A stretch of DNA of 37,954 bases from a virus, in UHGV virus genome UHGV-0114795, one strand, 5' to 3'. Below, in pieces: positions 1 to 31,281 of the stretch; the stretch's first letter is position 1; each line of letters begins with the position of its first letter. The notes under the pieces are model-generated. The model saw only the letters and a list, made by a program, of their open reading frames with translations, was not told where the DNA came from and made no database searches. Both the position numbers and the translations under genes were made by a program.

Positions 1-933
1 ATGGACAACGACAAAATTGATCAACACAGCGACGAAATTGAAGTTGAGAGCGAAGAAAAAGAGCGCGGCAAAAAAATAGAAATAGATGAAGACCGACTCC
101 CCTCCCGGGCGATGGCAATTCATGAGCATATCCGCCAGGATGGTGAAAAAGAGCTGGAACGCGACGCAATGGCGCTACTGTGGTCAGCCATTGCGGCGGG
201 TCTGTCGATGGGCGCTTCGTTACTGGCAAAAGGGATATTTCATGTCGAACTGGAAGGTGTGCCGGGCAGCTTCTTACTGGAGAATCTCGGTTATACCTTT
301 GGTTTTATTATCGTCATAATGGCCCGCCAGCAATTATTTACCGAAAACACCGTGACTGCGGTACTACCCGTCATGCAAAAACCGACAATGAGCAACGTTG
401 GCTTACTTATGCGGTTATGGGGAGTCGTGCTGCTGGGTAATATTCTCGGGACTGGTATTGCTGCGTGGGCATTTGAATATATGCCTATCTTCAATGAAGA
501 AACTCGCGATGCATTTGTCAAAATCGGCATGGATGTGATGAAGAACACCCCCAGCGAGATGTTTGCCAACGCGATCATTTCCGGCTGGCTGATCGCCACT
601 ATGGTATGGATGTTTCCTGCAGCAGGTGCGGCAAAGATTGTGGTGATTATATTGATGACCTGGCTTATTGCCCTGGGTGACACCACCCATATCGTGGTCG
701 GTTCTGTTGAAATCCTCTATCTGGTGTTTAACGGTACGCTGCACTGGAGCGATTTCATCTGGCCCTTCGCACTACCTACTTTAGCGGGGAACATCTGCGG
801 CGGCACCTTTATCTTCGCGTTAATGAGTCATGCACAGATTCGTAACGACATGAGCAACAAGCGTAAAGCAGAAGCACGCCAAAAAGCAGAACGTGCGGAA
901 AACATTAAGAAAAATGATAAAAACCCGGCATAA
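1..933 (+). CDS. yfdC: Formate/nitrite transporter (FNT) family inner membrane protein, host gene
   Basis: 310-aa ORF starting at ATG at position 1; multi-pass hydrophobic protein; recalled as matching E. coli YfdC, which lies immediately upstream of argW in K-12. Not verified by search. Confidence 0.8.
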   Translation: MDNDKIDQHSDEIEVESEEKERGKKIEIDEDRLPSRAMAIHEHIRQDGEKELERDAMALLWSAIAAGLSMGASLLAKGIFHVELEGVPGSFLLENLGYTFGFIIVIMARQQLFTENTVTAVLPVMQKPTMSNVGLLMRLWGVVLLGNILGTGIAAWAFEYMPIFNEETRDAFVKIGMDVMKNTPSEMFANAIISGWLIATMVWMFPAAGAAKIVVIILMTWLIALGDTTHIVVGSVEILYLVFNGTLHWSDFIWPFALPTLAGNICGGTFIFALMSHAQIRNDMSNKRKAEARQKAERAENIKKNDKNPA

Positions 934-1083: not shown

Positions 1084-1244
1084 TTTATCAGTTCGCTACC
1101 ATCCGTACCAGTCCGCAAAATCCCCTTAATATCAAGCCTTCCGTAGATTCACAGTTCGTCATGGTTCGCTTCAGATCGTTGACAGCCGCACTCCATGACG
1201 GGTAAAAAGTGGATAAAATAATTTTACCCACCGGATTTTTACCC

Positions 1245-2402
1245 ATGCTCACCGTTAAGCAGATTGAAGCAGCAAAGCCGAAAGAAAAACCATACCGCCT
1301 TCTCGATGGTAATGGCCTGTACCTTTATGTCCCTGTATCCGGGAAAAAGGTATGGCAGCTTCGCTACAAGATTGACGGTAAGGAAAAAATACTGACCGTA
1401 GGAAAATATCCGCTTATGACTTTGCAGGAGGCAAGGGATAAAGCATGGACTGCGAGGAAAGACATCTCGGTTGGCATCGATCCGGTAAAAGCGAAAAAGG
1501 CTTCGTCTAACAACAACTCCTTTAGCGCCATTTACAAGGAATGGTACGAGCACAAGAAGCAAGTCTGGTCAGTAGGCTATGCAAATGAACTTGCAAAAAT
1601 GTTTGATGACGACATTTTACCCATCATCGGCGGCCTTGAAATTCAGGATATTGAGCCGATGCAACTGTTGGAAGTAATCCGCAGATTTGAAGATCGCGGC
1701 GCAATGGAGCGAGCAAACAAAGCACGCAGAAGATGCGGCGAGGTTTTCCGTTACGCTATTGTCACCGGAAGGGCTAAATATAACCCGGCACCTGACCTTG
1801 CTGACGCCATGAAGGGATACCGCAAGAAGAACTTCCCGTTTCTTCCTGCAGACCAGATCCCGGCATTTAACAAAGCACTTGCAACATTTTCAGGAAGCAT
1901 CGTATCGCTCATTGCGACCAAAGTTTTACGCTACACAGCCCTAAGAACGAAAGAGCTTCGTTCCATGCTATGGAAGAACGTCGATTTTGAAAACAGGATT
2001 ATCACTATCGACGCCAGTGTGATGAAGGGCCGCAAGATTCATGTTGTTCCTATGTCAGACCAGGTGGTTGAACTTCTCACTACGCTAAGCTCAATCACCA
2101 AACCAGTATCAGAGTTTGTTTTTGCCGGTCGCAACGATAAGAAGAAGCCAATCTGCGAGAACGCGGTACTGCTTGTGATCAAACAAATCGGCTATGAAGG
2201 TCTGGAAAGCGGTCACGGATTCAGGCATGAATTCAGCACGATTATGAACGAGCACGAATGGCCTGCTGATGCTATTGAAGTGCAACTGGCACATGCCAAC
2301 GGCGGATCTGTGCGCGGGATTTACAACCATGCTCAGTATCTAGATAAGCGCAGAGAAATGATGCAGTGGTGGGCGGACTGGATTGATGAAAAGGTAGAGT
2401 GA
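1245..2402 (+). CDS. intS: Tyrosine recombinase, P4-like prophage integrase (CPS-53/KpLE1 IntS type)
   Basis: 385 aa from ATG at 1245 (MLTVKQIEAAKPKEK...), recalled as essentially identical to E. coli K-12 IntS next to argW; ORF-track start at 1209 (GTG) is probably an upstream extension. C-terminal catalytic region with R...H..R...Y pattern. Confidence 0.85.
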   Translation: MLTVKQIEAAKPKEKPYRLLDGNGLYLYVPVSGKKVWQLRYKIDGKEKILTVGKYPLMTLQEARDKAWTARKDISVGIDPVKAKKASSNNNSFSAIYKEWYEHKKQVWSVGYANELAKMFDDDILPIIGGLEIQDIEPMQLLEVIRRFEDRGAMERANKARRRCGEVFRYAIVTGRAKYNPAPDLADAMKGYRKKNFPFLPADQIPAFNKALATFSGSIVSLIATKVLRYTALRTKELRSMLWKNVDFENRIITIDASVMKGRKIHVVPMSDQVVELLTTLSSITKPVSEFVFAGRNDKKKPICENAVLLVIKQIGYEGLESGHGFRHEFSTIMNEHEWPADAIEVQLAHANGGSVRGIYNHAQYLDKRREMMQWWADWIDEKVE

Positions 2403-2529
2403 GCGACCTTAACAACTATCGAATAGCACAAAGCCTTGCAGTCAGTACAAAGCTTTGTGTTCATCAGTTTTGTCTCATCAACCACAGTAAGTCATCGATC
2501 GATTAAGAATTTGATGATAGTTTTGTCAA

Positions 2530-4455
2530 CTATAGCAATCTTATTTCTCCACCATGAACATTTATTGGCGTCATAAGAAGCGGACTCTCTACTACGACAA
2601 ACCCATTTTCATTACTTATAACCGGAGTCTTTGATTCATCAGATGTTGAAATAACCATCGCTTTATCTCCTGCCACAACACCTAACCAAAACCATGTCCC
2701 CAAGTTATGATCTATCTTCAATGCTAAAAAAATAAGCTGTGTATCAGAGTATTGTATTTGCGTTGTCCATTTTGCTCTAGTGTCTGAACCTGAAACCTCT
2801 GTAGAGACACTTGCGCCAACTGTATGTGCAGCAGAGCTACCGTTACTCATTTTGCCGTTAACAAGCTGCGGGTGGTATTTACTGGTCTGTTTGGCTTTCC
2901 CTACAACTGAACTAAGTCCTAAATCCGGGTGGTAGAAAACTATAGTCTGGTCTACTGTGCTGGCCTCTTTAGCGGATGCAGCAGGTAGTGTTGTACCGCC
3001 TGGTTTTATATCTGTTTGCCAGTGAATGTCGGAAAGGTTGTACGGAGACCCTTCGTTAAGGTCCCACCAAACTGCCCCTCCTCCAATACGGTTATTAGGC
3101 ATAATTCTTACGTTGGTATTGTCGTCGAATGCACCAAACATTTTCATACTGCTACCGTAAATCCAGCAGTTATCCAGCGTAATGTTATTTGCGCTCGTTG
3201 CTATAACCCCATACACATTGCTTTCGTTTGACTCTATGTAGCATGAATCAAACTTGATGTTATATGCACCTGCAATCCAAACACCGTGAGTACGAAAACT
3301 TTCAATACCACAGTTGAACAGCGTAAGTGCCTCTACCGCACCTTCAAACTTAAAACCTACATCACACTCTCCTGTGTGAACCGATACTAATGGCTGAATG
3401 TTGCATTCATCAGTAAAGTGATAGCGATGCAGACCAGTAGTATATGTACCATTGCACTGAAGATTGCGAAATAAAGAGTAAAAGCAGCGCTGAGTGTAAA
3501 CCAACTGCTGGACATTTACTCCAACAATATCTGTAACCTCGCATCCAAATACATGATTCCGCAAACGTAACCCCTGATAGAAATTAATCAGTGTGGCATT
3601 GCGAATTATTGTTCCTATGGTTAGATACTCTTCACCAGACTTTCCAAATACAGAAGATATAGCACCACTAGAAGCTATATAACCAGTCTCAATGAATACG
3701 TTATTTTCGTCGGAAGTATCGTCGCGGCCTACGATGCGAGCGCCCTGAAAATCGATCACTTGCACCCGACGATTAGGGAAATTAGTTTCTTCAATGTCAG
3801 ATGGAGATTCTGAAGCCAACACATAAACTTTACCGGCGATGTAATAGCTTTTCCACGGAGTGGCTACTACTTTAACACCACCTGCACGCCACGCAGCAAT
3901 CAGAGCGGCCTGAAATGCGTGTGTGTCGTCATGCTTGCTTGGGTTATCTTCTCCGTTCAATAAGTAGGCATCGCCATACGCACCAAAGTCATCTACATTA
4001 ATTTCCTGATTAAAGTAGTCAGATGCTTTTCTGGTTGCAGCATCAGCATAAGGCTTCTTAAATGAAATATAAGAAGCACCATCATCAGATGATAAGCGCG
4101 AAGAAAGTTGATCAGGGTCATACTTCAGCACATTAGGGAAATAGAACTGCTGCGATCCATACGCATCATAAACAGCCATAGAATGGCCTTGCACAGTTAC
4201 GAACTTAGCAATCTGTCCGTTATATACCGGGTAACCAGCAGCGTTAATGATGATTGGTTGCGAAACAGGAACGTGAGAGCCGTCTTCGTTCTCCACATAA
4301 ACCTGAATCTGGTTTTCGGGATTTACCGGGTCCGTGTCAATTTTACCGATATAAATTTTACCATTAGCATTTGCTTTAAACGAGCGAGCTAAAGTAAATA
4401 ACTGACTTGGTTGTGAAACAACAACGTTGTATAATTGTTCTGGCATAATAAACAT
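2530..4455 (-). CDS. Tailspike protein: P22 gp9-like N-terminal head-binding domain fused to a divergent receptor-binding domain of unknown specificity
   Basis: N-terminus ([66 protein letters not shown]) closely resembles the P22 tailspike N-terminal domain from memory; the remainder does not resemble P22 gp9. True start may be the ATG at 4446. Confidence 0.8.
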
Positions 4456-4468
4456 TCCGGAGAAAATA

Positions 4469-4969
4469 ATGAGTAAGAGACGTCACGAGGTAGTAACTCG
4501 GGAGCGCCTTATGGAGGTTCTCGATTACAATAAAGAAACAGGAATTTTCACTTGGAAAAAGAAATTAAGCGCCAGAGGTGCTGTTGGGAAAGTTGCTGGC
4601 ACAATTTCTTATGGATATAACGCGATTAATATTGATGGCGTAAGATATTTTGCACATAGACTTGCCTGGCTGTATGTATATGGCGAATGGCCCAAACAAG
4701 AGATTGACCACATTGATAGAAACAGAAGAAATAACGCAATCTCAAACCTTAGGGATGTTAGCAGAGTCGTAAATGCATTAAATGTCGGACCTCGAAATAG
4801 CAATGCTGGAATCAAGGGGGTAACTTTCTGTCAAGCCAGAAATCAATGGCAAGCTCAGATAAATGTCTCAGGTAAAAACATAACCCTTGGGAGATTCAAC
4901 ACCATTGATGAAGCGGCTATAGCTTATAAGGCAGCAAACATGGTTGCTGACCATCTGTTGAGTAGGTAA
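4469..4969 (+). CDS. HNH homing endonuclease with C-terminal AP2-like DNA-binding domain
   Basis: HNH_3-like motif ([36 protein letters not shown]) followed by AP2-like segment ([40 protein letters not shown]). GGAG 6 nt upstream of ATG at 4469. Opposite strand to both neighbours. Confidence 0.7.
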
Positions 4970-24957: not shown

Positions 24958-25581
24958 CTAACGTGTGACCGCATTCAAAATATTATCTGCGATTGACTCT
25001 TCTTTGTGGCATTGCACCACCAGAGAGTCATACAGCGGCTTAACAGTGCGTGACCAGGTGGGTTGGGTAAGGTTTGGGATTAGCATCGTCACAGCGCGAT
25101 ATGCTGCGCTTGCTGGCATCCTTGAATAGCCGACGCCTTTGCATCTTCCGCACTCTTTCTCGACAACTCTCCCCCACTGCTCTGTTTTGGCTATATCAAC
25201 CGCACGACCTGTACCGTGGCAATCTCTGCATCTTGCCCCCGGCGTCGCGGCACTACGGCAATAATCCGCATAAGCGAATGTTGCGAGCACTTGCAGTACC
25301 TTTGCCTTAGTATTTCCTTCAAGCTTTGCAACGCCACGGTATTTCCCCGATACCTTGTGTGCAAATTGCATCAGATAGTTGATAGCCTTTTGTTTGTCGT
25401 TCTGGCTGAGTTCATGCTTACCGCAGAATGCAGCCATTCCGAATCCGGCTTGTGATTGCGCCATCCCCATAGCAGCCATCACATCAGTACCGGAAAGAGA
25501 GTCAGAAGCCGTGGCCCGTGGTGAGTCGCTCATCATCGGGCTTTTTGGCGAATGAAATTTAGCTACGCTTTCGAGTCTCAT
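24958..25581 (-). CDS. Q: Late gene antiterminator Q (lambda type)
   Basis: 207 aa, [76 protein letters not shown]..., recalled as essentially identical to lambda Q. Confidence 0.9.
25281..25313 (+). promoter_or_regulatory. paQ-like CII-dependent antisense promoter inside Q
   Basis: TTGCGAGCACTTGC (TTGC-N6-TTGC) followed 13 nt later by TAGTAT on the strand antisense to Q; same architecture as PRE in this window. Confidence 0.55.
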
Positions 25582-26243
25582 GCGCCTTCTCCCTGTACCT
25601 GAATCAATGTGAGGTTTCCGCAGAACACTGCGCCGGTATCTATATACATCTGGTTGGCAAACTTGAGTGGTTTCACTGCTGGCGTATGACCAAAGATGAA
25701 CGTGTCCGCTCCTTTGATTTCTTTCACGATCCCGTCTTGTGAGTTGCTGATTCGTTCGCGGTTCCAGATTACCTGCTGATGATCAACTGGCTTTCCAAAC
25801 TCGTATTCGTCACAAGGATAATCGGCGTGGCAGATGACATATTTTTTACCTTTACTCACCAGTTCGATGATTAACGGAAGTTCATCTGCTTTATGGGCAA
25901 GAGCTTTAGCCAGAATTTCTTTGTCGTAATCGAGATTAAAGAACCAACTACCGCCATTAAGCAGCCAGTGATTGACGTTTCCGCGCTCTGATAAGCCATC
26001 AATCATCATTTGCTCATGGTTTCCACGTACAGCTCTGAACCAGGGGAATGTGATTAATTCCAGGCATTCGACGTTCTCTGTACCGCGATCAACCAAATCG
26101 CCCACCGAGATAAGCAGGTCTTTTTTGGTGTCGAATCCTATCGTCTCCAGTTTTTTCATCAGGTTCGTGTAGCATCCGTGCAGATCGCCAACTACCCAAA
26201 CATTTCGGTATTTGCTGCCATCAATTCTTTCGTAATAGCGCAT
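25578..26243 (-). CDS. ninI: Ser/Thr protein phosphatase, lambda NinI (orf221) type
   Basis: 221 aa from ATG at 26243 ([29 protein letters not shown]... GDLVDRG...GNHE); metallophosphatase motifs; ORF-track start 26318 is TTG-extended. Confidence 0.85.
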
Positions 26244-26427
26244 CTCTTTCACTCCATCCGCGATGAACCATGAGAACGTCGTTGACGATGGCGTGCATTT
26301 TCCCGTCTTTATCATCAACGTATTTTCTTACCGTGCCGCGACTACATTTCAGTCTGCGTGCTACTTCTGTCTGGTTTCCGTATGCTTCAACGAGCATGTC
26401 TGGAATGGTTTTTACTGAGAACGTCAT
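26221..26427 (-). CDS. ninH: NinH
   Basis: 68 aa [68 protein letters not shown], recalled as lambda NinH. Confidence 0.85.
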
Positions 26428-27035
26428 GCGGCCTCACTTCTGCTATTTCGCAGGTCTTTGAGTTTCTGTTGGTACTCTGCCTTGATCGCCTTGCACTCTT
26501 CGATAGTCCAGCGATGGCGGCTATGGTTTGATTCGATTTCGTCTACTGCTTCCTGCCCGATGCGGTTAATCAGTTCGACGCGATACGGAACGAGATTTCC
26601 GCTTTTGTGCTGGTTGCACACCACGCATTGCTTGTGAATATTGCGTTCATCAAATCGGAGTTGAGGTGCCGCAGCAGTTGTCCGGTAATGTCCGGCATCC
26701 CACTGAGCAGACGTGAGCGTTCCGCACGAGATACATGGTAAGTCGCGGTCTCTTTCTCTGATGAAGGCGTTTACGGCTTGTTGGGCTTGTTTAATCCAGT
26801 AACTGCGGGGCTTTAAGGCGAGTTTTCGAATCTTCAGTTTATCTTTCTGTTTCTGCTCCTCTCGTCGTAGTTTCTTCTCTGCTGCTTTTTCCGCTTTTTC
26901 GCGTTCTTTACTTCGTCGTTCGAGTGCTATCTTTGTTCCACACTCTGGAGAGCACCACCACTGATTAGCGAATGCAGGGTGAAACCATTCCCGACATTCT
27001 TCGTTTTTACATCGTCTTCGCGCTGGTTTAGCCAT
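26424..27035 (-). CDS. ninG: NinG (Rap recombination-associated endonuclease family)
   Basis: 203 aa, Cys-rich N-terminus ([33 protein letters not shown]); recalled as lambda NinG. Confidence 0.85.
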
Positions 27036-27222
27036 CGTCTTCTTCCTCGTACATTGAGCTATTCGGATCGCTCATCAGTTCTGCGCAGCAATCTGAGCAC
27101 ACGTGAACTTCCAGCACATGAAGCTTCTGACCGCAGTTAGCGCACGTTAAAGCTCGCTCGACACTTTCTTGTTCGTAACTTCGATTTGGGTCAATCACCT
27201 TGTTTTCCTCATGCGGTTCCAT
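27028..27222 (-). CDS. ninF: NinF
   Basis: C-terminal 56 aa ([52 protein letters not shown]) matches remembered lambda NinF; probable true start is the GTG at 27198 preceded by GAGGAAAA; ORF-track version is a long upstream extension. Confidence 0.7.
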
Positions 27223-27337
27223 TTGGCCTGTAACAGCCCGTAGACATAATCGAATGTCTTTACCTGGCTTTCTGTGGGGATTGGTTTCTTGCGGGATTTG
27301 GTGCGTTTGGTAGGAGTAAAAATCAGGTTGTCTAACG

Positions 27338-27511
27338 CTATTTGAGTAATGCTTCGTCGCTGTCTCGCCACACGTCCTCCTTTTCCTGCGGTAGTGGTAA
27401 CACCCCTGTTGGTGTTCTTTCACACCGGAGACACCATCGATTCCAGTAAGGTTGCCCGGGTCGAAAGCGATCGCCTTCCTTTCGCTCTCCACATCGATAA
27501 CAGTGCTTCAT
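27338..27511 (-). CDS. Small Cys-rich (zinc-ribbon-like) protein, NinD/NinE position
   Basis: [16 protein letters not shown]...WCLRCE; ATGA overlap with the methyltransferase stop suggests coupling. An alternative reading frame over the same DNA is also open, so frame is uncertain. Confidence 0.4.
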
Positions 27512-28098
27512 GCGATCACCATTTTGCATGGTTTAATCGCCATGCCGGTAGCCAGTTCAAAATCGGAGTCGCACTGATTGCCCCACATATCCCACCCGGT
27601 CACTTTGTCGCGGCTAAATAACTCACAGCGCGGCACGTCGCCAAGCAACTTAGCTAACATGTCTCTTACGATCGGTGGTTTTGCACTGTGCTCCATTCTC
27701 GGTGCGGTAAAGTGCTGGCATATGGAAGCGTCCATTCTCTCAGGCAACCGCCCTCGAACAGCAAACAAGCAATCCTCGCTATTTGCCCTGGTCATATGCC
27801 CCATTCCGATCGCACTGTTTCCTTTGTGCTTATTGGTTTTATGCCAGGTAAAGCCTTTCATAGTCATCAACCTGAATCCCCACGCCTCAACTACCTTTAG
27901 CGCTTCGGCTGGCTGTGTCGGCACCCACCACATCGCTAACAAGCAAGATTCTGGATCCGCTAAATCCCATACTGGCAGTCGGCAAATGTCCTGAACATTC
28001 ATAACATCGTATTTATGTCCAGCACCGCGATTGCCATCGTTGGCTTTGTCGCGATATTGCCAAGGTGGATCTGCGTAAATAAGTCGGTATTTGTTCAT
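27508..28098 (-). CDS. DNA N6-adenine methyltransferase, MT-A70 family
   Basis: DPPW motif ([10 protein letters not shown]) near N-terminus; 196 aa; ATGA overlap with ninB stop. Confidence 0.8.
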
Positions 28099-28535
28099 GC
28101 AGCTTTATCTCCCCATCTCGCTTTCCACTCCAGAGCCAGTCGCGCTTCGTCTGACCATTTAACGCCACGTTCTGTACCGAATGCCTGTATAAGCTCTAAT
28201 AGCTCCGCAAATTCGCCTACACGCATCCTGCTGGTTGACTGGCCTATTACCACAAAGCCATTCCCGGCAAGGTTAGGAACAACATCCTGCTGCTTTAATG
28301 CTGCGGTAAACACACACTTCCAGCTTTCTGCATCCAGCCAGCGACCATGCCATTCAACCTGACGAGAGACGTCACCAAGGCAAGCCCAAAGCTTTCGATT
28401 CTGGTCTAAGCTGCGGTTGCGTTCCTGAATGGTTACTACGATTGGTTTGGTTGGGTCTGGAAGGATTTGCTGTACTGCGTGAATAGCGTTTTGCTGATGT
28501 GCTGGAGATCGAATTTCAAAGGTTAGTTTTTTCAT
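28095..28535 (-). CDS. ninB: NinB (Orf family recombination mediator)
   Basis: 146 aa from ATG at 28535 (MKKLTFEIRSPAHQQNAIHAV...), strong GGAGG upstream; recalled as lambda NinB. Confidence 0.8.
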   Translation of the reverse strand: MKKLTFEIRSPAHQQNAIHAVQQILPDPTKPIVVTIQERNRSLDQNRKLWACLGDVSRQVEWHGRWLDAESWKCVFTAALKQQDVVPNLAGNGFVVIGQSTSRMRVGEFAELLELIQAFGTERGVKWSDEARLALEWKARWGDKAA

Positions 28536-28551: not shown

Positions 28552-28583
28552 AAATAAAAAGGCCTGCGATTACCAGCAGGCCT
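28552..28583 (-). terminator. Intrinsic terminator between helicase gene and ninB (lambda tR2 position)
   Basis: AGGCCTGC-GATTACCA-GCAGGCCT perfect 8-bp stem; on minus transcript followed by UUUUUAUUU. Confidence 0.65.
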
Positions 28584-28608: not shown

Positions 28609-29985
28609 TCATACGTCAGCCCCTTGTGCATATCGTCTGCCACGCGCAGCAGGTGCATTTGATGTTGTGCAAATCTGTCTGGCTTCATCCTGGTCACATG
28701 CAACAAAGTGTCCGTTGCAGAACCGCTGGTAAACCGTACCAAGCGAGCCAAAACGGTTTTTCGTCACAATGATTTCAGCAAATGGCGCGGCGCTACTGTT
28801 CTCGTCATATACAGCTTCCCGATAGAGCATGATGATTGAGTCTGCGTCCTGCTCAATGCTTCCTGAATCACGCAAATCTGCGTTTGTCGGGCGTTTGTTT
28901 GGTCGCTTCTCAACATCGCGCGAAAGCTGACTCAGGGAGATAACCGGTGTTTTCAGGTCTTTCGCCATCGCCTTCAGGCTTCCGGAGATGTGAGCAATTG
29001 CGAGGTCGTTGCGGTCTGCTTTCGGCTTCTCAATCAGGCCAAGATAATCCGCCATGATGAGTGAGAGGTTTGGATTTTCCTGTTTGTGCCGTTCTGCGAT
29101 TGAGCGTATTTCTTCGACCGATAACCGCGAGGCATCGACTACCCATACATCCAAATCTGCAAGCTGACTCATGCCGTTAGCAACGCGCGCCCAGCCTTCG
29201 TCATCCATCGCTGCAGGATTTCGCAGTACGCTAACCGACATCCTCCCGGCGTTGGCAATGCTTCGCTCTGCAATCTGCAATGCGCTCATTTCCATTGAGA
29301 AAATCAATACCCCGCGCCGGACGTCAGAACCAGGAATAGTGCGGCTTGCAACGCCTTCGGCAATCTTCAGCGCCAGCTCGGTTTTCCCCATACCAGGACG
29401 AGCAGCGATTATCACCAGGTCTTCCGCGTTCATCCCTCCGGTGATGGCATCAAGTTCTTCGATTCCGGTCTTCAGGGTATCTGACTCTTCTCCGTTCCTC
29501 AGACGCCTGTCAAGCGTGTCAGTGTAGTCAGTAATGATTTCCCCTAACCGTACAGGTTTTACCTCGTCACGGGGCTTTCTGATGGCTGAGAGACGCTTTA
29601 CAAGCTCATCCATCGCCTGACTCGATGCGTCGATGGTTCCGCTCTGAATTGGTTCACGCATTTCATCCATGATTTCCAGCACCAGACGGCGGTGATAGTT
29701 ATCCGCGACCATTCCGGCATATCCCTTCAGGTTTGCGGCGCTCGGGCAGTTTTTGCTGGTCATCAGGATTGACGTGAAATGCTCATCTCCGCACGCCTCG
29801 GCAACCATCAGTGCGTCGATTAGGTTTCTGTTTCTCGCCTGCTTGCGGATAACCTCGAAGGCTTTCCGGTAGAGCGGAATTGAAAACGCTTCCGGCTCCA
29901 GCGTTGCCAGAACGTCGCTGGCGGTTGGTGTTAATCCACCAATCAGCAGGCCACCGATAACGCTCGCTTCGATATCCTGTCTCAT
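28609..29985 (-). CDS. Replicative DNA helicase, DnaB-like (P22 gene 12 type)
   Basis: 458 aa with Walker A (GMGKT) and DnaB C-terminal domain features; overlaps initiator gene end. Confidence 0.85.
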
Positions 29986-30929
29986 GCAATCCCCCTGTCT
30001 GCAAACTTCCCTTCCCGAACTCCCGTTAACGAATCTTCTCTCAGCAAGTAATCAAAATCAGCCGTCCAGCCCGTGTCGTTGTCTCCGAAGTAAAACGGCT
30101 TGGCCTGATGCACAAACGCCCTGACATACGCTCTGAAACCGTCCACGTTTGGCGTTTTCAGTTGCGGGATGATTTTCTTCAGGCGGCGTTTGCGTTTCTC
30201 GTTGACCGCAACAGCGTGTGGAAGTCTGTCACCGACTTCGGTGTTGTAGGCGTTCAGGAAGGATTCGTAGTCGATTCGTTCTGCCTTGCGACGTTCAGGT
30301 TTAACCTGCCCATCGCCTCCCCCATTGGGGGGTAGGGGGGTATTATTTATATTCTTGTTAATACCTTCTTGTTCATGATGTGCGGTTGTTTGTGCGGCTT
30401 CATGTGCGCTTTCATGTGCGGCATGTGCGCTGAAAGCCGCGCCATTACTGGCTTCGTCATGTGCGGCATCATGTGCGGTTGTTTGTGCGGCTTCATGTGC
30501 GGGTGAATTGTCCATTTTTTGAGCGTATTCATGGTAATTTGTGATGGTGATCACACGACCTTTTTGCTTCTCTCCATCAATGGAGATCATCCCCTCTTTC
30601 ACAAAAACCTGAAGCATCCGCTCAACCTGATCACGGCTTGCCGGCTTGCCATGCCTGTCGCATAACTGAAGACCTAAATCAGCTGCTGTCACAACCAGTT
30701 GACCGGGTTGCAGATGCCATTCATGACCTTTGAAATTCGCTTTGTATGGCTTTCTGGCGGCATTCAGGAGAAGGTTTTCCCACAGGGTGCGAAGATAAAC
30801 ATCTTTCGCCCATGACTGTTTCAGAATGCTCCGGTACAACGGAATGTAACCAGTTTTCTGGTTCTCCATCCTGTTGCTCCTGCGCTCGTGTGCGGCGCTG
30901 AAATCGTAGATTTTTGCTGTATTGCTCAT
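29982..30929 (-). CDS. Replication initiator, O-like N-terminal domain (P22 gene 18 type), containing the origin iterons
   Basis: 315 aa; N-terminus [10 protein letters not shown]... typical of phage replication protein O; central His/Ala-rich segment encoded by the iteron DNA. Confidence 0.8.
30373..30505. repeat. Origin-type iterons (about 9 copies of ATGTGCGG/C at roughly 10-12 bp spacing) with flanking AT-rich and G-rich blocks
   Basis: Read directly: 31-bp direct repeat ATGTGCGGTTGTTTGTGCGGCTTCATGTGCG at about 30378 and 30471; additional TGTGCG units between; AT-rich 30341..30365; CCCCCATTGGGGGGTAGGGGGG at 30319..30340. Confidence 0.75.
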
Positions 30930-30931
30930 AA

Positions 30932-31204
30932 CTACCTGCCTTGACGAAAGACCTTAAGAACATCGTTAAACTGACTTACGGATATGTCTTCTTTGAGCAG
31001 CTTTTCCAGAAATGCGTTTGGAATGAACGTATATCCCTCCTCTTTTGGTAGAGACGGGAGCAACGCCCTCGCCTCAGCCTTCAGAAGCTCAGTTCTGGCA
31101 ACTTTCACAAAAGAGATTTGAGTTCTTTCATCAATGGAACGAAGGAAGCGCAAGCGCTTGGCTTCTTTGTGTGTATCAGGTGGATTAAAGTCTTTGTTTC
31201 GCAT
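30932..31204 (-). CDS. Hypothetical protein (90 aa) between cII and replication initiator
   Basis: ATG at 31204 with GAGGT upstream (MRNKDFNPPDTHKEAKRLRF...); ORF-track version 30932..31513 is an extension through cII in another frame. Confidence 0.5.
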   Translation of the reverse strand: MRNKDFNPPDTHKEAKRLRFLRSIDERTQISFVKVARTELLKAEARALLPSLPKEEGYTFIPNAFLEKLLKEDISVSQFNDVLKVFRQGR

Positions 31205-31215
31205 ATAATTACCTC

Positions 31216-31281
31216 GTTGGATGTTGTTAAAATTCCATTTGTATTTGATCAGAACGCTCGGTTGCCGCCGGGCGTTTTTTA
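31216..31281 (+). ncRNA. oop-like antisense RNA (antisense to 3' end of cII)
   Basis: 3' portion (CCATTTGTATTTGATCAGAACGCTCGGTTGCCGCCGGGCGTTTTTTATT) nearly identical to remembered lambda oop RNA 3' end, with terminator hairpin GCUCGG-UUGCCG-CCGGGC plus U6; candidate -10 TATAAT at 31204..31209. The 5' end is inferred. Confidence 0.55.

Follow-up and report, generated by a model that had tools for sequence, protein, structure and literature searches.

The stretch of DNA analysed here (the window, 37,954 nucleotides) is a P22-like lambdoid prophage. It encodes a tailspike with a P22 head-binding domain, an integrase, a lambda-N-type antiterminator (gene at 33119-33445) and a cI-type repressor, and a host formate/nitrite-transporter gene adjoins the prophage. 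The gene at the centre of this analysis encodes an MT-A70 methyltransferase, and the genes around it all lie on the minus strand. They form an early-right (PR) operon in the order O-like replication gene, DnaB-type helicase, terminator, ninB, MT-A70, ninD, ninE, ninF, ninG, ninH, phosphatase and Q, with the following coordinates:

29982-30929, minus strand: O-type replication gene
28609-29985, minus strand: DnaB-type helicase, an open reading frame
28560-28583, minus strand: intrinsic terminator between the helicase gene and ninB, from a terminator scan (stem of 8 pairs, 6 of them G-C, followed by a T-run)
28095-28535, minus strand: ninB, Orf-family recombination mediator (146 aa; Pfam NinB, E=2.3e-54)
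27508-28098, minus strand: MT-A70 methyltransferase (196 aa; Pfam PF05063, E=6.7e-25)
27338-27511, minus strand: ninD (57 aa; Pfam PF17466, E=8.5e-36)
27195-27371, minus strand: ninE (58 aa, GTG start; Pfam NinE, E=2.1e-19)
27028-27198, minus strand: ninF (56 aa, GTG start; Pfam NinF and PHROG 672)
26424-27035, minus strand: ninG (family profile match)
26221-26427, minus strand: ninH-like open reading frame (assigned by position and length)
25578-26318, minus strand: Ser/Thr phosphatase-type gene (metallophosphoesterase)
24958-25581, minus strand: Q-type antiterminator

The start of ninB is placed at the ATG at 28535, which follows a GGAGG-type ribosome-binding site; the mechanical open reading frame begins upstream, at a TTG (28553), and the RefSeq homologue is likewise 146 aa long. 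The 58-aa form of NinE is also called in E. coli loci. The start of ninF overlaps the ninE stop (GTGA), and a 56-aa NinF is annotated in RefSeq and called in several E. coli loci that carry an identical methyltransferase.

The methyltransferase matches PF05063 over the whole profile (positions 1-172 of 172), with 88.4 bits against a cut-off of 23.9. It also matches PHROG 359, 'DNA methyltransferase' (2e-106), and PADLOC MTase_II (4e-70). Among NCBIfam models none matched the methylase or NinD, while PADLOC returned nothing for NinD or NinE and, for the methylase, generic Type II methylase models only. The DPPW tetrapeptide, catalytic motif IV, is intact at residues 10-13, near the N-terminus of the domain. 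In 49-53 homologues D10, P11 and W13 are invariant and P12 is nearly so. An earlier sequence-only reading of this locus had recognised an MT-A70 adenine methyltransferase with a DPPW motif in the nin region, which the profile match bears out, and had named mutated catalytic residues as a sign against its view. In an alignment of 49 homologues (68-98% identical to the query), the window's enzyme keeps the family residue at 54 of 54 invariant columns, DPPW included. Compared with an E. coli copy, the gene differs by five synonymous and two nonsynonymous codon changes. By these sequence measures the gene bears no sign of decay.

Structural comparison points the same way. The sequence itself matches MTA1 and METTL3 chains, and an AF2 model (pLDDT 77.8, pTM 0.78), searched with Foldseek against the PDB, aligns with METTL3 (5il1_A) at E=2.6e-13 and TM 0.70 over 180 columns, for a protein of 196 residues. 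Tetrahymena MTA1 also superposes on the model, with a TM of about 0.70. Low confidence in the model is limited to two loops (15-29 and 100-103) and the three C-terminal residues, and the modelled protein consists of the catalytic core alone, with no extra domain. Judged from sequence and model, the enzyme amounts to an MT-A70 (class beta) N6-adenine methyltransferase core that is complete and has a single domain. Class beta enzymes are generally dimers, so this one is probably homodimeric.

On both sides the methyltransferase gene shares four nucleotides with its neighbour, as had been described from the letters. The ninB stop overlaps the methyltransferase start, and the methyltransferase stop overlaps the ninD start, each as ATGA (plus-strand 'tcat' at 28095-28098 and 27508-27511). 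Nin regions show such junctions generally (PMC8022706), and for this reason the overlaps are not telling for the methyltransferase gene in particular. Its placement between ninB and the ninF side was correct as far as the nin region is concerned, but the gene does not lie directly beside ninF; ninD adjoins it.

The identity of this adjoining small gene had been a point of doubt. Two mechanical open reading frames are indeed open across 27338-27492, one of 63 aa (27338-27529) and one of 154 aa (27028-27492), and the sequence-only reading had left the choice between them unresolved while describing the rival frame as NinE-like. The rival is in fact the frame of NinF; NinE (27195-27371) occupies a third frame and overlaps ninD only in its final 34 nt, an overlap also seen in lambda and P22. 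The Cys-rich open reading frame matches Pfam NinD, PF17466, with 122.3 bits (cut-off 35; E=8.5e-36), and PHROG 8091 at 5.9e-34. Its product is a 57-aa, zinc-ribbon-like protein with a CxxC...CxxC pattern. The ATG at 27511, which overlaps the methyltransferase stop, is preceded by a Shine-Dalgarno sequence (GGTGA); the upstream ATG at 27529, from which the 63-aa form of NinD would begin, has no Shine-Dalgarno sequence before it, and the RefSeq form of NinD is 57 aa.

Comparison with relatives settles the frame. The NinD family is present in 208 phage records (tblastn), including lambda (87% identity) and P22 (70%). The lambda and P22 proteins are likewise 57 aa long, with four conserved Cys and the same 34-nt ninE overlap; the last four residues differ (ALLK against VSPT), which is due to a variant in the ninD/ninE overlap. 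The ninD copies of lambda, P22, ST64T and E. coli measure 174 nt each, with no indels and with four of four Cys kept. A comparative codon analysis, which had been suggested as one way to decide the matter, was run on the 138 nt of ninD that lie outside the ninE overlap. Substitutions, summed over all pairs, fall 76:44:182 on NinD codon positions 1, 2 and 3. Against P22, they divide into 19 synonymous and 14 nonsynonymous changes in the NinD frame and into 5 and 30 in the rival frame. The 154-aa frame is open in the window, in lambda and in one E. coli copy, as a gene in that frame would require, but it is interrupted by in-frame stops in P22 and ST64T. Its matches to Pfam NinF and PHROG 672 are confined to residues 98-153, and the part upstream of NinF has no family match. 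It is therefore extremely improbable that the 154-aa open reading frame, or another frame, is the real gene over 27338-27492 and that NinD goes untranslated. The segment 27199-27492 was rejected as a gene for the same reasons; it is a non-coding run-on, in which the NinF frame stays open upstream of its gene through ninE and ninD. On comparative sequence grounds, the Cys-rich open reading frame is ninD, a conserved gene whose reading frame begins with the ATG at 27511. The left limit once given to the feature, 27223, falls inside ninE, beside an ATG of the NinF-frame run-on, and has no biological meaning.

The arrangement of methyltransferase and ninD is ordinary, and public genomes already carry annotation for it. 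An index of public assemblies contains the identical 196-aa protein in 292 blocks, and the eight places listed all show the order NinB, MT-A70, NinD, NinE, NinF. The 90% cluster of the enzyme holds 228 member sequences under the name 'MT-A70 family methyltransferase [Escherichia coli]', and the wider family counts 12,496 representatives at 50% identity (E up to 0.001). RefSeq carries the same annotated order on chromosomes of E. coli, and at least 80% of a 1.6-kb query is matched in 39 complete genomes. For example, the enzyme of an E. coli lambdoid prophage in RefSeq (WP_073514669.1, NZ_CP039403; identical copies in CP021689 and CP022393) is 99-100% identical to that of the window. These E. 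coli prophages share with the window both the gene order from NinB to NinF and the 4-nt overlaps, while the neighbouring modules vary among them (replication genes, ninG versus rusA, and Q type). All near-identical copies occur in bacterial genome assemblies; among the isolated phages of the phage collection, no copy exceeds 82% identity.

The position just after ninB is known to vary between phages. In P22 the slot is empty, and ninB and ninD share the ATGA directly. In lambda it holds ninC, which encodes a PAPS-reductase-like protein, and in phage 434 a Dam methylase of an unrelated family (PF05869). Both of these genes occupy the same slot as the methyltransferase, with the same ATGA junctions, although the proteins are unrelated to it. 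The ninB-side boundary, 'gctgcATGA', is common to the window, lambda and phage 434. The methyltransferase is one of several alternative cassettes for this variable slot.

The surroundings of the gene also bear on its expression. No promoter-like site was found on the minus strand between 26900 and 28800, and the terminator scan found no terminator flanking the methyltransferase gene, the only strong one being that upstream of ninB. P22 is annotated with a terminator ('L2') at the same place as the element at 28560-28583, and lambda tR2 occupies this position too. The sequence-only reading had called the methyltransferase a moron. As a classical moron the gene was rejected, because it has neither promoter nor terminator of its own and lies inside the PR operon behind the tR2-like terminator, in a packed nin cluster where it overlaps both neighbours by four nucleotides. 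On this anatomy the gene belongs to the delayed-early PR transcript, and the enzyme would be made only in lytic growth, once N-type antitermination has passed the terminator before ninB. In a lysogen the gene is probably silent, since it sits in the PR operon behind that terminator, a position that predicts repression. A comparison of the methylomes of a lysogen and a cured strain, put forward as a way of identifying the target, would probably be uninformative, both because the gene is likely silent and because host Dam already methylates GATC.

The same anatomy weighs on a role in defence or lysogenic conversion. The enzyme could be one component of a restriction-modification system or of another kind of defence, or else a moron that the prophage expresses for lysogenic conversion; PADLOC Type II methyltransferase models match it, and Stx phages carry restriction-modification systems (M.EcoGIII, PMC6602927). 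However, its neighbours are nin genes, with no adjacent nuclease or other defence gene, and a search for a cognate restriction endonuclease found none either adjacent to it (NinB, NinD/E/F/G) or among the window's other early genes. Nor does the gene come with its own promoter or terminator: a terminator precedes it, and the prophage repressor would silence the operon to which it belongs. All of this makes such a role very unlikely.

Several named relatives help to place the enzyme. The closest homologues in isolated phages are those of Salmonella phage epsilon15 (78% identity) and Erwinia phage vB_EhrS_59 (82%), which have the same loop sequences as the query. In Erwinia phage 59, the homologue directly follows the NinB analogue and a Dcm-like methylase lies nearby; the epsilon15 gene is found close to the integrase, with a PerC-like gene two genes upstream of it. 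The copy of phage PA28 (AKI86725, 208 aa) is 64% identical over residues 3-187, and the TL-2011b variant is 71% identical. The PA28 protein carries a 13-residue motif matching that specified by the mutagenesis primer published for M.EcoPA8orf6770P of the Stx2a phage phiPA8, and on this motif match we take the PA28 copy to be M.EcoPA8orf6770P. The enzyme M.EcoGV is described as highly similar to M.EcoPA8orf6770P (PMC10810198, PMC6602927). This M.EcoGV/M.EcoPA8orf6770P type shares with the query the MT-A70 core, the DPPW motif, the character of an orphan enzyme and an origin in temperate enterobacterial phages. It differs in a loop at about 88-103, in a longer C-terminal tail and in context: its gene lies near the integrase of Stx phages and is co-transcribed with PNB-2, whereas that of the window lies in the nin region without PNB-2.

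More distant members of the same prokaryotic MT-A70 group include BZS1 p32 and HK639 gp35, as well as M.EfaBMDam. HK639 gp35 is 45% identical to the query, relative to which it has an insertion of roughly 25 residues, and 75% identical to BZS1 p32. An MT-A70 enzyme on Enterococcus plasmids, whose gene lies among conjugation genes, is 39.5% identical, and we take it to be the Tn1549-type M.EfaBMDam. The contexts of these enzymes (integrase-proximal for BZS1 p32 and HK639, a conjugative transposon for M.EfaBMDam) differ from that of the query. A crude neighbour-joining tree places the query with epsilon15, Erwinia phage 59, PA28 and TL-2011b, while the other GATC-related sequences fall on distant branches.

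The sequence-only reading had declared the target of the enzyme unknown. For the protein itself this holds, but its relatives are informative: GATC-methylating enzymes are represented among them at 64%, about 45% and 39.5% identity, and one of these methylates 16S rRNA with a partner. M.EcoGV, from the Stx2a phage of an O104:H4 strain, is reported to methylate GATC when overexpressed (Fang et al. 2012, as described in PMC10810198 and PMC6602927). Serratia phage BZS1 p32 is GATC-specific as judged by MboI/DpnI digestion (PMC7556043), and the same paper cites M.EfaBMDam of Tn1549 as GATC-specific. GATC is predicted because of these relatives with measured specificity and the tree grouping, and it is the best prediction for the enzyme, held with moderate confidence. 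Taken with the position of the gene, the explanation that we judge probable is a lytic-phase, Dam-like GATC DNA methylase in the nin slot, its specificity being read from its relatives.

The virion DNA of P22 and lambda is undermethylated at Dam sites, since replication outruns host Dam (PMC8022706). The enzyme of the window would methylate the adenine of GATC on replicating phage DNA and so top up host Dam. The added methylation would guard the DNA from systems that restrict unmethylated GATC and from nicks at hemimethylated sites. The unrelated Dam-family enzyme that phage 434 carries in the same slot fits this rationale.

Some evidence counts against GATC. Two putative substrate loops, 15-29 and about 88-103, differ from those of the M.EcoGV type, with the model itself weak at 15-29 and 100-103. 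The reported GATC activity of M.EcoGV comes from overexpression, and purified M.EcoPA8orf6770P is described by Gong et al. as weak and non-specific on DNA (PMC10810198). The enzyme could instead be a DNA adenine methyltransferase with another target, either a different short motif or a relaxed or non-specific one, like M.EcoGII, Hia5 or the enzyme of Serratia prophage OS31. Phage methylases of relaxed specificity exist (PMC7556043), and the window's enzyme is a catalytic core alone, without a separate target-recognition domain, whose loop at about 88-103 is unlike that of M.EcoGV-type enzymes. Against this, relatives that span the full range of the prokaryotic MT-A70 group and are 39.5-64% identical to the query are reported, in part through secondary citation, to be GATC-specific, even though their loops differ greatly, as in the insertion of HK639. 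The phage 434 enzyme in the same slot, although unrelated, is also of the GATC type. A target in DNA other than GATC is accordingly a possible but rather unlikely alternative.

The other reading with a precedent is that of an RNA enzyme. Like M.EcoPA8orf6770P of phiPA8, the methyltransferase would act on host 16S rRNA and adjust translation or prophage induction. In its favour are the 64% identity to the PA28 copy, the presence of RNA m6A enzymes (METTL3) among the closest solved folds, next to the DNA enzyme MTA1, and the preference for 16S rRNA that Gong et al. found for M.EcoPA8orf6770P when bound to PNB-2 (PMC10810198). However, activity on 16S rRNA needs PNB-2, the gene for which lies just upstream in phiPA8; in the window, the gene immediately upstream of the methyltransferase is ninB. 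A tblastn search of the whole window with PA28 PNB-2 as the query (word size 2) found no homologue, with a best E of 0.25 that is read as chance. Similarly, queries from TL-2011b and epsilon15 found no PerC-like homologue in the window (tblastn; best E=0.03, inside the phosphatase gene). The C-terminal tail, which has been suggested to bind PNB-2, is shorter and unrelated in the query (196 aa against 208 aa in PA28, with the alignment stopping at residue 187). Position and regulation also differ, since the phiPA8 gene is integrase-proximal and induced in stationary phase, while that of the window lies in the nin region of the PR operon. Finally, according to Gong et al. themselves, non-STEC strains have shorter variants, which occur without PNB-2 (PMC10810198). 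Action on 16S rRNA thus appears improbable. A further proposal, that the methyltransferase, alone or with the coupled NinD, could act on RNA or on single-stranded or replicating DNA in lytic growth, is highly doubtful; if it were true, NinD would serve as a subunit for specificity, comparable to PNB-2 or METTL14.

The importance of the locus lies mostly in its correct annotation, as a standard mosaic nin region with a catalogued methyltransferase and a small open reading frame that is the known gene ninD. Beyond this, the Dam-like reading touches on a dispute over the nearest characterised relative, for which GATC in DNA and 16S rRNA have both been put forward as targets. Because PNB-2 is absent, the nin-region copy, an enzyme naturally without the RNA-directing partner, offers a clean test of the activity of the bare enzyme.

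The base composition of the window touches on the same question. GATC is depleted, with 83 sites observed against 147-184 expected (observed/expected 0.45). A phage that fully protected its own GATC sites would have no obvious need for such depletion, which counts against the GATC reading. As a clue to specificity, GATC frequency was set aside as non-diagnostic: GATC depletion is general in enterobacterial phages, and CTAG is lower still in the window, at an observed/expected ratio of 0.27.

The window, lambda and phage 434 all carry the sequence 'gctgcATGA' at the junction between ninB and the gene that follows it; in lambda it recurs at the boundary between ninC and ninD. The cassette boundaries compared are as follows, in coordinates specific to each locus:

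window 28095-28107 and 27508-27520, cassette boundaries
lambda locus 623-635 and 1492-1504, boundary sequence
phage 434 locus 1698-1710, boundary sequence

This shared sequence may serve as micro-homology for swapping alternative cassettes. Among isolated phages, the closest homologue of the MT-A70 methylase (82%) is that of Erwinia phage vB_EhrS_59, where the gene likewise follows a NinB analogue (region 2042-4932 of its locus). A Dcm-like cytosine methylase lies approximately 0.8 kb downstream of it in the same nin-like cluster, giving the early operon of this phage two DNA methylases. In several Stx2a-converting phages (including LC616031 and LC616052), matches are limited to methylase residues 91-187, which is consistent with the IS629-disrupted allele described for phiPA2 (PMC10810198). 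Homologues with 67-70% identity also occur on a group of plasmids from E. coli, Salmonella and Klebsiella, such as NZ_CP009073 from E. coli ATCC 25922; the uniform size of these plasmids, about 46-49 kb, suggests that they are phage-plasmids.

Avoidance of Dam sites is a known trait of enterobacterial phages, and the low GATC count fits this pattern: across the window (1-37954), 83 sites were observed vs 147-184 expected, a strong depletion (observed/expected 0.45). CTAG (0.27) and GGCC (0.51) are likewise low over the same interval. The scarcity of GATC is noteworthy in a phage that itself encodes a probable GATC methylase.

Upstream of the cluster, between the helicase gene and ninB, lies the terminator that corresponds to tR2 in lambda and L2 in P22:

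window 28560-28583, minus strand, strong intrinsic terminator, AGGCCTGC...GCAGGCCT and then a T-run

This terminator implies that N-type antitermination is required for the entire nin cluster. A lambda N-type antiterminator (Pfam N36, E=1.5e-26) is encoded at 33119-33445, although the virion genes are P22-like. Three early-region ORFs of 98-193 aa (30932-31513, 33764-34060 and 34686-34997) gave no Pfam match with an E-value of 0.001 or below.

Further along the cluster, the four C-terminal residues of NinD are ALLK, whereas lambda, P22 and one E. coli copy have VSPT. This change falls within the 34-nt overlap of ninD and ninE (27338-27371); NinE itself has a GTG start and 58 aa rather than 60.

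One prophage end lies inside the window, since a host gene adjoins the integrase:

window 1-933, host formate/nitrite-transporter gene, adjoining the prophage integrase
window 1209-2402, prophage integrase
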